Positions 49,390-62,031 of a stretch of DNA of 64,000 bases are shown in pieces. Below the pieces are notes generated by a model. It saw only the letters and a program-made list of their open reading frames with translations. It had not been told where the DNA came from and did no database searches. The DNA is from Candidatus Eiseniibacteriota bacterium (GTDB taxonomy: Bacteria > Eisenbacteria > RBG-16-71-46), in assembly GCA_041483195.1 (NCBI GenBank), contig JBGPFC010000002.1:1-64000 (forward strand), in the 5' to 3' direction. How positions within the stretch are numbered: the first letter of the stretch is position 1; each line of letters opens with the position of its first letter. Both the position numbers and the translations under genes were made by a program.

Positions 49390-51315
49390 CTAACCGCCGG
49401 CGTCCGGCACCGGAGTCTCCCTCGCGAGCGCGGGCAGCCCGGGTGCGGATACCGGATTGACGCCGGCGAGGGCCGCATCGCACAGCAGGCGCAGCGCGTG
49501 GTAGCGCGAGAGCGGCAGCACGTGGCCGGGCGCCTCGCGCAGCACGCGCGCCGCGCGCACCCGGTGAGCCGGGTCCAGCGTCACGCCGATCACCCCGTCC
49601 GAGAACTCGCATCCGCCCTCGTGCCGGATCAGGGTGTGCGTGATGCCGTCGATGCGCGCGGTGATCCGCGCCCCGCCGGATTCGATCAGGATGCCGTCCG
49701 CCTCGGGAGCGGCCTCGAAGCTCGCGGGCGTCGGGTGAAAGCGCGGTTTCATGAGGTGGGGGCCTCCCGCTTCCGGGCAGAACGTGTCGCAGTTGCCGCA
49801 CGCGTTGCAGGAGTCCGCGAACAGCGCCCACTGCTTCTCGCGGACGATCGCGAATCCTGCGGGACGGCTCACGACCGCGCCGCGCTCGATCGTCAGATCT
49901 ACGGTCTCGATCGCGACCGGCGCGATCGGGAGCGCGAAGAACGCGTCGTTGGGACACACCAGCAGGCAATTGTTGCAGGATGCGCAATCGAGCAGCGCGA
50001 GCCGCCCCGCGCGCGGCGTGACGGCGCGGTGCCGTTCCGCGCTGAAAGCCGGGTCGGCGACCACCCGGGCCGCGTACGCCTCGAGCCGGGAGCGCGATGC
50101 GAACCCGGCGAGATCGCGCTCGCCGCGCGCCGCCATCGCGTCCTCGATCGCGCGGAGCATGCGCGGCATCCGGCGGTACCCGGTGGGCTTCAGCAGGTCG
50201 GTGCACACCGTGACCGGGGCGAAGCCGCACGCCACGACATCCGCGATGTTCTCGGCGTCGACGCCCGCGCTGAATGAAAACCGGATGGCCTCCGGGATTT
50301 CGCCGGCGAGCCGGTCGGCCAGCAGGATGGCGAGCGGATGGAGCGGCGGCCCGGACACGTACACCCGCTCGCCGGCGAGCCGGCCGCGCGTGTTGCGGAC
50401 GACCAGCGTGTTGCTGAGCTTGGCCCCGAGCGTGAGACCGAGGCGCGAGGCCGCGACCGTCAACCGGCGCAGCATGGCGACCGCGTGCGGCCACTGGAGA
50501 TCGCTCTCGAACGCGGCGCGGTCGAGCGTCAGCTCGTCGTAGCCGAGCCCGCGCCTCAGCACCTCATCGACGGTGTCGTAACCGAGCAGCGTGGGATTGA
50601 GCTTCACCACCACGTGGAGCCGGTGACGGGTGAAGAGGTGCTCCACCATGCGCTCGATCTCGTCCGCCGGGCACCCGTGGAACGTGGAGAGCGTCACGCC
50701 CGCCGTCACCCGCGATGGGATCTCGAGGTCCACGGCGGCTCGCAGCGCGCGCGGGATGCGTTCGCGCATGGACGCGATCGTGTCGTGCGCGTCGCACAGC
50801 GTGTCGAGGAAGCGTGCGACGCGCGGCGCCTCGAGCCCCGCGAGGTCGTACCCGACCGAGGCGTCGAACAGCGTCTCGAGCGGGCGGCCGGCGGCCTCTC
50901 CGATGCCGCGGCCGCGCAGCGCGTGGATCAGCATCCATGCCGAGACGTACTGTTCGGCGGACTCCTCGAGGGTGAGCTCCTGCGACCACTCGACGTTGTA
51001 GCCGACGTCGGGCGCGTCGATGCAGGGACGGGGCACCTCGATGCGATCGTTGGCCTGCACCGTCTTGAGCTCCAGCACGCGCGCCCCGGCGAGCCAGCCG
51101 AGCGCGAGATTCTGGGCGAGCTGGGTGTGCGGTCCGGCCGCCGGGCCGACCGGGTTCGCGGCCCGGCCGCCCGGCAGCGCGATGGACAGATCACACCCGG
51201 GCCGCGGGCGCCAGAACGAGCGTTGGGGCAGATCGAACACGGTGCGCCGCGACGCGAACTCGGCGAGCGCGCGCGCGAGCAGCACGGGCAGCGGCTGGGG
51301 GATGAGGCCCGGCAT
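49390..51315 (-). CDS. ygfK: short YgfK-like oxidoreductase (N-terminal barrel + two 4Fe-4S motifs)
   Basis: GPAAGPHTQLAQN, ELKTVQ, PCID..DVGYNVEWS.EL, TLSTFHGCP..EIE, KLNPTLLG, KLSNTL; CASCNNC...CPN and CNACGNC.TFCP; 641 aa. Confidence 0.85.
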   Translation of the reverse strand: MPGLIPQPLPVLLARALAEFASRRTVFDLPQRSFWRPRPGCDLSIALPGGRAANPVGPAAGPHTQLAQNLALGWLAGARVLELKTVQANDRIEVPRPCIDAPDVGYNVEWSQELTLEESAEQYVSAWMLIHALRGRGIGEAAGRPLETLFDASVGYDLAGLEAPRVARFLDTLCDAHDTIASMRERIPRALRAAVDLEIPSRVTAGVTLSTFHGCPADEIERMVEHLFTRHRLHVVVKLNPTLLGYDTVDEVLRRGLGYDELTLDRAAFESDLQWPHAVAMLRRLTVAASRLGLTLGAKLSNTLVVRNTRGRLAGERVYVSGPPLHPLAILLADRLAGEIPEAIRFSFSAGVDAENIADVVACGFAPVTVCTDLLKPTGYRRMPRMLRAIEDAMAARGERDLAGFASRSRLEAYAARVVADPAFSAERHRAVTPRAGRLALLDCASCNNCLLVCPNDAFFALPIAPVAIETVDLTIERGAVVSRPAGFAIVREKQWALFADSCNACGNCDTFCPEAGGPHLMKPRFHPTPASFEAAPEADGILIESGGARITARIDGITHTLIRHEGGCEFSDGVIGVTLDPAHRVRAARVLREAPGHVLPLSRYHALRLLCDAALAGVNPVSAPGLPALARETPVPDAGG

Positions 51316-60597: not shown

Positions 60598-62031
60598 GTG
60601 AAGGTCGCGAGCCGCCTCGCGTGTGCGGGCTGCGGCGATGCGCCCGGGGCGCGCGACGCCTACCCGTTTCGTTGTCCACGCGCCGGATCGGACGACGGCG
60701 CGGACCACGTGCTCACGCGCGTGCTCGACCTCGAGCCGGAGCGTTTCGCCCCGCAGGCGTCCCACCCGCGGTTCGCATGGGACGATGCAGAGCACCCGTT
60801 CGTGAGGTTCCGCACCCTGCTCCATGCGTACCATCGCGCCCGCGCGGGAGGAATGCTCGACGGCGAGTTCGCGGGGCGGGTTGCCGCGCTCGACGCGCGG
60901 GTCGCGGCGGTCGACGGACGGGGCTTTCGCGTCACGCCCTTCGCCCCGAGCCCGGCGCTCGGCGTGCAGCTCGGGGTCGCGGGCGGTCTGTGGATCAAGG
61001 ACGAGACCGAGAACGTCGCGGGCTCGCACAAGGCGCGGCACCTGTTCGGCATCCTGCTCCACCTCGAGGTGGCGGAGGGCATCGGGCTGACCTCGCGCGC
61101 CGAGAGCGATCGGCGCGGGCTCGCGATCGCGAGCTGCGGCAACGCGGCGCTCGCGGCGGCCGTGCTCGCGCGCGCGAGCGAGCGCCCGCTTGGCGTCTTC
61201 ATCCCGACCGACGCCGATCCCCGCGTGGTCGAGCGGCTGAAGGCGCTCGGCGCACGCATCACCGTCTGCCCCCGTCGCGGGGGCGAGCGTGGCGATCCGT
61301 GCATGCACGAGTTCCGCCGCGCCGTCGCGGCCGGCGCGCTCCCGTTCTGCTGCCAGGGGAGCGAGAACGGCCTCACGATCGAGGGAGGCGAGACGCTTGC
61401 GTGGGAGATTGCCTCCTCGCTCGCATCGGAGGGGGCCACGCTCGACCGGCTCTTCGTCCAGGTGGGCGGCGGCGCGCTCGCGAGCGCCACCGTGCAGGGA
61501 TTGCGCGAGGCGAAGGCGCTCGGCGCGATCCAGCGCCTGCCGCGCATCCATCCGGTGCAGACGCGTGGCGCGCATCCGCTGCGCCGCGCGTACGAGCGGG
61601 TGCGCGCGCGGATCTGCGAGGCGCTCGGCGCGCGCGAGACCGGCGATGAGGCGTGCGCGGACTTGATGCGGGAAGCCGCCGGCGGCCAGCGGGTGCGCGA
61701 TGTGCTCCACGACGCGCAGCTGCACCGCGCCCGGTTCATGTGGCCGTGGGAGGAGACGCCGCACAGCGTCGCGCACGGGATTCTCGACGACGAGACCTAC
61801 GATTGGCACGCGGTGGTCGCCGGCGTGATCGAGACCGGCGGCTGGCCGGTCACCGCGGGGGAGGACGCGCTTCGGGAGGCGCGGGCGCTGGCCCACGACG
61901 TCGCCGGGATCCACGCGGATCACACCGGGGCCGCCGGGCTCGCGGGGCTGATCGCGTTGCGCGGGAGCTCCGGCACGCGGCCCCACGAGTCCGCGGCGAT
62001 CCTCATGACCGGGATCGAGCGCCGCGGCTAG
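60598..62031 (+). CDS. threonine synthase-like PLP fold-type II enzyme
   Basis: GTG 2 nt after the previous stop; N-terminal C..CG...FRCP; TP, KDET.NV.GSHKAR, IASCGNAA, VQVGGGAL, GA.GLAG, ..TG; 477 aa. Confidence 0.85.
   Translation: MKVASRLACAGCGDAPGARDAYPFRCPRAGSDDGADHVLTRVLDLEPERFAPQASHPRFAWDDAEHPFVRFRTLLHAYHRARAGGMLDGEFAGRVAALDARVAAVDGRGFRVTPFAPSPALGVQLGVAGGLWIKDETENVAGSHKARHLFGILLHLEVAEGIGLTSRAESDRRGLAIASCGNAALAAAVLARASERPLGVFIPTDADPRVVERLKALGARITVCPRRGGERGDPCMHEFRRAVAAGALPFCCQGSENGLTIEGGETLAWEIASSLASEGATLDRLFVQVGGGALASATVQGLREAKALGAIQRLPRIHPVQTRGAHPLRRAYERVRARICEALGARETGDEACADLMREAAGGQRVRDVLHDAQLHRARFMWPWEETPHSVAHGILDDETYDWHAVVAGVIETGGWPVTAGEDALREARALAHDVAGIHADHTGAAGLAGLIALRGSSGTRPHESAAILMTGIERRG

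Follow-up and report, generated by a model that had tools for sequence, protein, structure and literature searches.

A probable environmental variant of the reductive uric acid degradation cluster, with two added PLP enzymes, in Candidatus Eiseniibacteriota

A 64,000-nucleotide stretch of DNA from a Candidatus Eiseniibacteriota bacterium (assembly GCA_041483195.1, contig JBGPFC010000002.1; hereafter the window) carries, between positions 49,390 and 62,031, a six-gene operon and two divergent genes for pyridoxal 5'-phosphate (PLP)-dependent enzymes, here called PLP1 and PLP2. Judged from its sequence, the locus is best read as a known pathway in a new form, namely, uric acid breakdown that dispenses with the oxygen-dependent uricase and uses a trimmed gene set. 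We consider it probable that the locus represents an environmental form of the reductive (2,8-dioxopurine/yanthine) route for uric acid degradation, a reading to which we are led by the homology of the six operon genes to characterised enzymes, their tight coupling, and the recurrence of the set in other genomes. Three enzymes are changed: YgfK and SsnA are short, and YgeY is long. An earlier note on this DNA had proposed a distinct variant of the anaerobic urate cluster, a proposal now supported by a homologous gene set in which YgfK, SsnA, and YgeY are altered and a PLP pair is added.

Gene calling relied on a codon-bias model for which the window itself was the training set, and the calls were checked against Pfam and NCBIfam. 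This gave 53 genes in the window, with strong coding potential for those of the cluster; raw lists of open reading frames are crowded with shadow frames because the G+C content is about 70 to 73%. The operon runs on the minus strand from 58713 to 49390 in the order arcC, ygeW-like, ygeY-like, xdh, ssnA-like, and ygfK-like. Overlaps of 4 nt join arcC to ygeW, ygeW to ygeY, and xdh to ssnA; ssnA and ygfK overlap by 1 nt, and ygeY and xdh are separated by 4 nt. As the earlier note had described it, the operon is tight, with all six genes on one strand and junctions that either overlap or leave a 4-nt gap, and the two PF00291 genes are divergent from it.

Related loci were collected by scanning a short-SsnA alignment against one genome per species. 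A relative of the short SsnA is encoded in at least 593 of the 600 matched stretches, which come from species-representative genomes, and the locus counts given below cover the best 80 of these 600. All 80 are metagenome-assembled genomes (MAGs) or uncultured bins, labelled as 24 Acidobacteriota, 19 Myxococcota plus 2 "delta," 7 Candidatus Eisenbacteria, 6 Betaproteobacteria, 5 Gemmatimonadota, 5 Planctomycetota, 1 Gammaproteobacteria, 1 Alphaproteobacteria, and 10 unclassified or with another label. The supposition that the cluster belongs to a non-gut lineage agrees with the environmental character of these MAGs. Genes were counted in the following numbers of loci: Xdh, 64; PLP1, 58; PLP2, 46; short YgfK, 35; YgeW, 28; YgeY, 22; and ArcC, 14. 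The commonest arrangement is xdh, ssnA, PLP1, and PLP2 on one strand, and the gene order of the window is shared by four Eisenbacteria loci (L011, L013, L022, and L032), with ArcC, YgeW, and YgeY 70 to 78% identical. The gene arrangement is far beyond chance, as the same set recurs across the 80 loci and several phyla.

The xdh gene (52427..55063, minus strand) encodes an 878-amino-acid (aa) fused [2Fe-2S]/molybdopterin hydroxylase with the Pfam domains Fer2, Fer2_2, Ald_Xan_dh_C, MoCoBD_1, and MoCoBD_2, which scores 928.5 bits over its full length against TIGR03311 (cut-off, 830.45). A molybdenum hydroxylase of the XdhD/XdhAC kind here adjoins ssnA-like and ygfK-like genes, the neighbourhood by which a reductive urate cluster is recognised. 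We predict that Xdh is a urate 6-dehydroxylase of the 2,8-dioxopurine dehydrogenase type that works without a flavin adenine dinucleotide (FAD) subunit. Its identity to Escherichia coli XdhA, XdhC, and XdhD is 32, 39, and 27%, respectively, so that it is closer to the first two than to XdhD. Glu606 of E. coli XdhD has been proposed to orient urate (PMC12507026); the region of the window protein opposite this residue gave no credible alignment. The "Se-dependent" label attached to Xdh comes only from the name of the TIGR03311 model.

At the end of the operon lies a ygfK-like gene (49390..51315, minus strand) for a protein of 641 aa, compared with 1,032 aa for E. coli YgfK. Its match to TIGR03315 (408 bits; cut-off, 835) covers only profile positions 6 to 452 of 1,012, and it aligns to residues 7 to 410 (39.5% identity) and 884 to 994 (26%) of E. 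coli YgfK. It contains two CxxCxxCxxxCP motifs, and Pfam found neither Fer4_20 nor Pyr_redox_2 in it, so the protein is not a full-length DOPOR with a pyridine nucleotide module. From the partial coverage, the two Fe-S motifs, and the missing domains, we conclude that this is YgfK minus its GltD-like NAD(P)H/FAD module (E. coli residues ~411 to 883), with the N-terminal substrate domain and the C-terminal pair of [4Fe-4S] clusters kept. The description of the last operon gene as ygfK thus stands for the substrate half and the [4Fe-4S] domain and fails for the NAD(P)H/FAD module. The best 120 YgfK-like relatives listed are 545 to 699 aa long; the nearest named one is from Candidatus Eisenbacteria (62% identity), and no sequence match was found in the PDB at an E value of ≤0.01. 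The short form occurs in 35 of the 80 loci and the full-length form in 3.

The ssnA-like gene (51315..52430, minus strand) encodes an amidohydrolase of 371 aa that falls below the cut-offs of its family (264 bits against NF005540, cut-off 444; 245 bits against TIGR03314, cut-off 455.5), although SsnA is by far its top family and the runner-up scores 83 bits. The protein aligns to positions 57 to 330 of the 444 in the NF005540 profile and to residues 53 to 441 of E. coli SsnA; the N-terminal ~45 to 50 residues of canonical SsnA are missing, and the xdh stop overlaps the ssnA start, leaving no room for them. When a 75-residue probe for this segment, taken from a longer family member, was applied to 81 sequences (the 80 loci and the window), the segment was absent from 52, present in 18, and partial in 11. 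The metal ligands of the HxH, His, His, and Asp type (H17, H19, H148, H173, H175, and D260) do not vary among 20 relatives, and the best 120 SsnA-like matches listed are 351 to 421 aa long. A quick tree left most forks unsupported, with phyla intermixed and a long branch (4.57) to E. coli SsnA.

Upstream in the operon, the ygeY-like gene (55068..56627, minus strand) encodes an M20 hydrolase of 519 aa with 33% identity to E. coli YgeY and a score of 172 bits against NF009555 (cut-off, 321). Among 20 family members, 9 are 405 to 462 aa long and 11 are 506 to 521 aa long, the extra length being made up of several insertions; H112, D114, D171, E208, E209, and H488, residues of the M20 metal-site type, are invariant in all 20. 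The short SsnA and long YgeY that had been remarked on earlier are therefore recurrent lengths among relatives. The ygeW-like gene (56624..57766, minus strand) encodes a knotted carbamoyltransferase of 380 aa, 45% identical to residues 19 to 372 of E. coli YgeW and scoring 346 bits against NF005538 (cut-off, 453). The carbamate kinase gene arcC (57763..58713, minus strand; 316 aa) opens the operon, and its product lies just above the TIGR00746 cut-off (358.9 versus 358.25 bits) and over its full length is 44.5% identical to E. coli YqeA.

PLP1 (59096..60595, plus strand; 499 aa; PF00291) and PLP2 (60598..62031, plus strand; 477 aa; PF00291 at 123.6 bits), both fold-type II PLP enzymes, are separated by 2 nt. 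More than neighbours of the operon, both are core members of the cluster by their counts across the 80 loci. In 51 of these loci, across several phyla, PLP1 follows ssnA on the same strand at a distance of no more than 1.2 kb, and both PLP genes are present in 43 of the 60 loci that have at least 3.2 kb of downstream sequence. With starts called automatically, stop and start overlap in 21 of 40 co-directional PLP1-PLP2 pairs and in 14 of 42 ssnA-PLP1 pairs.

The core of PLP1 resembles CysK and CBS and is extended by ~105 N-terminal and ~100 C-terminal residues that are conserved in the family. Its score against the CysK model TIGR01139 is 75 bits (cut-off, 350.95); it lies outside that family and shares the fold alone. 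Residue K112 and two loops, S140-T-G-N143 and G258/G261-T262, do not vary among 45 sequences; the S-T-G-N stretch, alongside the lysine and the Gly-rich loop, we take to be an Asn-loop-like motif, the motif names being those of the CysK literature. The AlphaFold2 model (pLDDT, 91.8) has O-acetylserine sulfhydrylases, beta-cyanoalanine synthase, and CBS as its top PDB folds, with the core superposing on CysK/CBS at target-normalised TM-scores of 0.73 to 0.83. PLP1 differs from these enzymes in its conserved terminal extensions and in its genomic context, which is purine catabolism and not sulfur assimilation. At an E value of ≤1e-30, a PLP1 profile matched 580 representatives among 1.84 billion.

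PLP2 has a Cys/His (Cys-rich) motif at its N terminus, and K145, S179-C-G-N182, and Q288-V-G-G291 do not vary among 35 sequences. The top PDB folds of its predicted structure (pLDDT, 91.6) are threonine synthase, serine racemase, and TdcB, and it scores 67.8 bits against the threonine synthase model NF006050 (cut-off, 303), so that it too is similar in fold and lies outside the family. Like YgeX/DpaL, the 2,3-diaminopropionate ammonia-lyase, PLP2 is a fold-type II PLP enzyme, and the two are relatives at the profile level (hhalign against E. coli YgeX: probability, 81%; E value, 1.2e-5; 23% identity over 197 columns); its closest structural matches, listed above, are different from YgeX. In the protein Atlas, the names given are only the generic "PLP-dependent enzyme."

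Longer natural PLP1 matches were considered as gene fusions and rejected. There are 13 of these (897 to 1,581 aa), and in the 11 examined, the linkers resemble what is obtained when neighbouring genes are read through out of frame. The SsnA-PLP1 and PLP1-PLP2 "fusion" proteins P0242 to P0252 have Arg/Pro/Ala-rich linkers typical of out-of-frame translation of high-G+C DNA and are probably frameshifted assemblies, not real fusions.

A true YgeX was found in none of the loci: the E. coli query returned a single weak match (22% identity) in the 81 sequences, and a search of the window for diaminopropionate ammonia-lyase gave no NCBIfam match and no BLAST match, both at an E value of ≤1e-3. The PLP pair coexists with hydantoinase, YgeW, YgeY, and carbamoylases, and YgeX is the one canonical function never seen in the 81 sequences. 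By this complementarity, the pair likely does the job of YgeX, and PLP1 and PLP2 would probably represent a non-orthologous replacement of that enzyme. Gene association and complementarity also make PLP2 a likelier ammonia-lyase analogue than PLP1. The pair is no stand-in for HyuA, since all 12 loci that contain a true hydantoinase (TIGR02033, 619 bits; cut-off, 393) carry both PLP1 and PLP2.

The local absence of hyuA, an orthologous ygeX, an Xdh FAD subunit, a transporter, and selenium maturation genes, pointed out by the earlier note, was confirmed with tblastn and Pfam over the whole window. No match to E. coli K-12 HyuA, YgeX, YqeB, YqeC, MocA, YgfM, XdhB, YgfS, or YgfT was found there by tblastn at an E value of ≤1e-3, nor to E. 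coli SelD at ≤1e-5, and no purine permease domain was detected by Pfam among the 53 called genes. A hydantoinase is present in 12 to 13 of the 80 related loci, and from its occurrence alongside the cluster in this minority, we take the step to be probably still needed and encoded elsewhere in most genomes. One candidate stand-in in the window, a creatininase-family gene at 46427-47125, was rejected, as it scores 77 bits against a cut-off of 235 and has no homologue in the 80 loci.

A scheme can be put together from the pathway steps set out in two reports (PMC12507026; bioRxiv 10.1101/2025.04.24.650524). In it, the fused Xdh would reduce urate to 2,8-dioxopurine, and the short YgfK, through its substrate domain and two [4Fe-4S] clusters, would reduce the pyrimidine ring. 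The short SsnA would then open the reduced ring hydrolytically. Opening of the hydantoin or dihydropyrimidine ring by HyuA would presumably be encoded elsewhere in the genome. The YgeW-like transferase would phosphorolyse one ureido group to carbamoyl phosphate, from which ArcC could make ATP, and the long YgeY-like M20 enzyme would hydrolyse the remaining ureido group. Finally, the resulting C3 amino acid, 2,3-diaminopropionate and/or albizziin, would be converted to pyruvate and ammonia by PLP1/PLP2 in place of YgeX.

Since Xdh lacks a FAD subunit and YgfK lacks the NAD(P)H/FAD module, each of the two reductions would need a separate low-potential electron carrier, and an external donor of this kind has been proposed for the Clostridioides difficile enzymes. 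E. coli YgfK uses NAD(P)H (PMC12507026; bioRxiv 10.1101/2025.04.24.650524), and C. difficile combines a FAD-less reductase, UacX, with a FAD-less XdhD, both presumably fed by ferredoxin (PMC12507026). The short YgfK reaches a C. difficile-like FAD-less architecture by a different route. Beside the cluster in three loci (L001, L006, and L056) is a gene for a GltD-like NAD(P)-binding protein with a PorD-like ferredoxin tail (e.g., L006:15269-17101), followed by genes for the alpha and beta subunits of a 2-oxoacid:ferredoxin oxidoreductase; these are a possible source of reduced ferredoxin from pyruvate, the pathway end product.

The selenium question can be followed in the same loci. Neither selD, yqeB, nor yqeC was found in the window or the 80 loci, in which the YqeB query returned 5 partial XdhC-like matches. 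In L026, L029, and L044, the gene immediately upstream of the fused xdh encodes an ordinary XdhC, the standard cofactor insertion protein of 262 aa. In L065, an XdhC gene lies near a second XDH; none of these four loci has yqeB or yqeC.

The window can be set against the two forms of the pathway described in the published reports. With the E. coli uricolytic cluster (xdhD-ygfM, ygfK, ssnA, hyuA, ygeW, yqeA, ygeY, plus ygeX; PMC12507026), it has in common the adjacency of ssnA and ygfK and homologues of the molybdenum hydroxylase, the YgfK substrate and ferredoxin domains, SsnA, YgeW, YgeY, and carbamate kinase. It differs in having no YgfM or other FAD subunit, no YgfK NAD(P)H/FAD module, and no hyuA, ygeX, yqeB, yqeC, mocA, or transporters, as well as in the addition of two unrelated PLP enzymes. 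The clostridial form (XdhAC [DOPDH] of Clostridium sporogenes and XdhD and UacX of C. difficile; bioRxiv 10.1101/2025.04.24.650524, PMC12507026) likewise has a fused FeS-Mo hydroxylase that is independent of NAD(P)H and has no FAD subunit, and its reductase, also without a FAD/NAD(P)H module, implies a ferredoxin-type donor. In contrast to that form, the reductase of the window is a truncated YgfK and not a PF01180 homologue of PydA/UacX (no DHO_dh match at an E value of ≤0.01); YgeW and ArcC are kept in place of UacY, and HyuA and YgeX are missing from the window.

Across the 80 loci, the modules around the core vary. The reductase is mostly the short YgfK, with full-length YgfK in the 3 loci noted above, and a few loci have a protein of the PydA/UacX-like or fused DPD-like kind. 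Cleavage of ureido groups is represented by YgeW and YgeY, in some cases accompanied by ArcC, or by an M20 carbamoylase and/or a CN-hydrolase. Genes for a three-subunit XDH, including a FAD subunit, accompany the cluster in 13 to 15 loci, and guanine deaminase (guaD) homologues do so in 5; both speak for a purine context. In two betaproteobacterial loci, L047 and L037, YgeW, YgeY, and YqeA are 72 to 82% identical to those of E. coli K-12 and adjoin the environmental xdh, short ssnA, and PLP1-PLP2 pair, with no YgeX present, which suggests recent exchange and mixing of modules. L047 also encodes a full-length YgfK (909.5 bits; cut-off, 835.3). A 43-kb contig labelled Candidatus Saccharimonadales (L009) carries a short ssnA together with genes for a three-subunit XDH and for a reductase of the fused DPD-like kind, and its label may reflect mis-binning. 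In two Eisenbacteria loci (L011:1186-2712 and L013:1801-3351, both minus strand), a class-V aminotransferase-fold protein (PF00266) of 508 to 516 aa is encoded between arcC and the PLP1 side; a NifS-like role in cofactor sulfuration is conceivable for it.

Several points weigh against a variant of the urate pathway. The scores of SsnA, YgfK, YgeW, and YgeY below the curated NCBIfam cut-offs make an altered specificity possible. Hydantoinase is absent from the window by tblastn and from 67 to 68 of the 80 loci. For the last step, hhalign detected no relation between PLP1 and YgeX (probability, 1.2%), and that of PLP2 is at the superfamily level only. PLP1 is missing from 11 loci whose flanks extend for at least 8 kb on each side, including the Eisenbacteria loci L011 and L032, which have the window gene order.

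A bolder version of the pathway reading, which we put forward tentatively and regard as doubtful when taken as a whole, would make the core of xdh, short ssnA, PLP1, PLP2, and short ygfK a separate, HyuA/YgeX-free branch of reductive purine degradation in soil and groundwater phyla. Together, PLP1 (CysK-like) and PLP2 (ThrC-like) would use new PLP chemistry on a C3 amino acid that carries a ureido or amino substituent, e.g., beta-elimination or beta-replacement of the ureido or amino group, and the carbon skeleton would possibly be salvaged as an amino acid and not as pyruvate. Both reductions would draw on a ferredoxin-type donor, and the molybdenum enzyme would be matured by an ordinary XdhC, not by a selenium system.

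Alternatively, the same chemistry (molybdenum-dependent dehydroxylation, flavin/FeS ring reduction, amidohydrolytic opening, and ureido cleavage) may act on an N-heterocycle other than urate, as had also been entertained in the earlier note. The equivalog cut-offs missed by four of the proteins are in keeping with this, as are the very long branch of E. coli SsnA relative to the environmental clade in the quick tree, the lack of a purine transporter in the window, and a PLP pair unlike YgeX. Against it, Xdh exceeds the TIGR03311 cut-off at full length, conventional XDH subunits and guanine deaminase homologues keep company with the cluster in the loci counted above, and the short SsnA and PLP pair occur in some loci together with YgeW, YgeY, and YqeA that are highly similar to those of E. 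coli. On balance, we judge another substrate unlikely, the XDH and guanine deaminase genes in particular making it less likely than urate.

It is less likely again that PLP1 and PLP2 stand outside the pathway, e.g., as a co-located biosynthetic pair for beta-replacement and threonine synthase-like reactions, with an unlinked gene supplying the YgeX step. Their folds do resemble those of cysteine synthases (PLP1) and threonine synthases (PLP2), they are divergent from the operon in the window, and PLP1 is missing from the 11 long-flank loci. The position of PLP1 directly after ssnA on the same strand in most loci of several phyla argues otherwise, as do the frequent stop/start overlaps, scores far under the CysK (75 versus 351) and ThrC (68 versus 303) cut-offs, and the absence of YgeX from every locus. 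That the cluster is a decaying remnant with inactive SsnA and YgfK fragments is strongly disfavoured and very improbable: SsnA does lack its N-terminal segment and YgfK is shortened by ~470 residues against the E. coli protein, but these short lengths are conserved among the best 120 relatives listed for each, metal ligands and Fe-S motifs are intact, coding potential is strong, and short YgfK far outnumbers the full-length form in the loci.

Between arcC and PLP1 lies a divergent intergenic region of 382 bp (58714..59095), the presumed promoter region. It contains no sigma-70 consensus site, a scan for promoter and terminator consensus sequences gave results at the level of shuffles, and Rfam returned no match within 44000-64000 at an E value of ≤0.1. 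The flanking genes are of housekeeping and peptidase type (EF-G, RuvABC, QueA, trigger factor, ClpP, ClpX, Lon, S9 peptidase, and M1 peptidase). Outside the cluster, a run of plus-strand genes at 44338-47125 encodes a class-V aminotransferase (BhcA/AGXT-like; 259 bits against a cut-off of 650), a short PGDH-like 2-hydroxyacid dehydrogenase, and the creatininase-family hydrolase mentioned above; it is not conserved with the cluster, with a single weak match to the dehydrogenase across the 80 loci. The window also encodes a c-type cytochrome (4709-5116, minus strand) and a TonB C-terminal domain protein (35360-35830, plus strand), and these genes indicate that the organism respires and has an outer membrane and is not a strict gut fermenter.

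The reductive urate pathway was elucidated in gut bacteria in 2025, and one survey reports it as enriched in host-associated Bacillota (bioRxiv 10.1101/2025.04.24.650524). That survey set thresholds for 4 of 7 proteins, namely, a coverage of at least 80% and fixed identity cut-offs; the other (PMC12507026) marked YgeX simply as PF00291 and drew SsnA from IPR017700; surveys made in these ways would probably miss the environmental form. We found no paper on the environmental form or the PLP pair; the surveys' supplementary tables may include genomes of this kind.

The locus and its relatives suggest that a streamlined reductive urate pathway is common in uncultured phyla of soil, sediment, and groundwater. 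They offer as targets for enzymology two uncharacterised PLP families, a YgfK minus its NAD(P)H module, and an SsnA shortened at its N terminus, and they raise the question of whether selenium is needed outside gut lineages.

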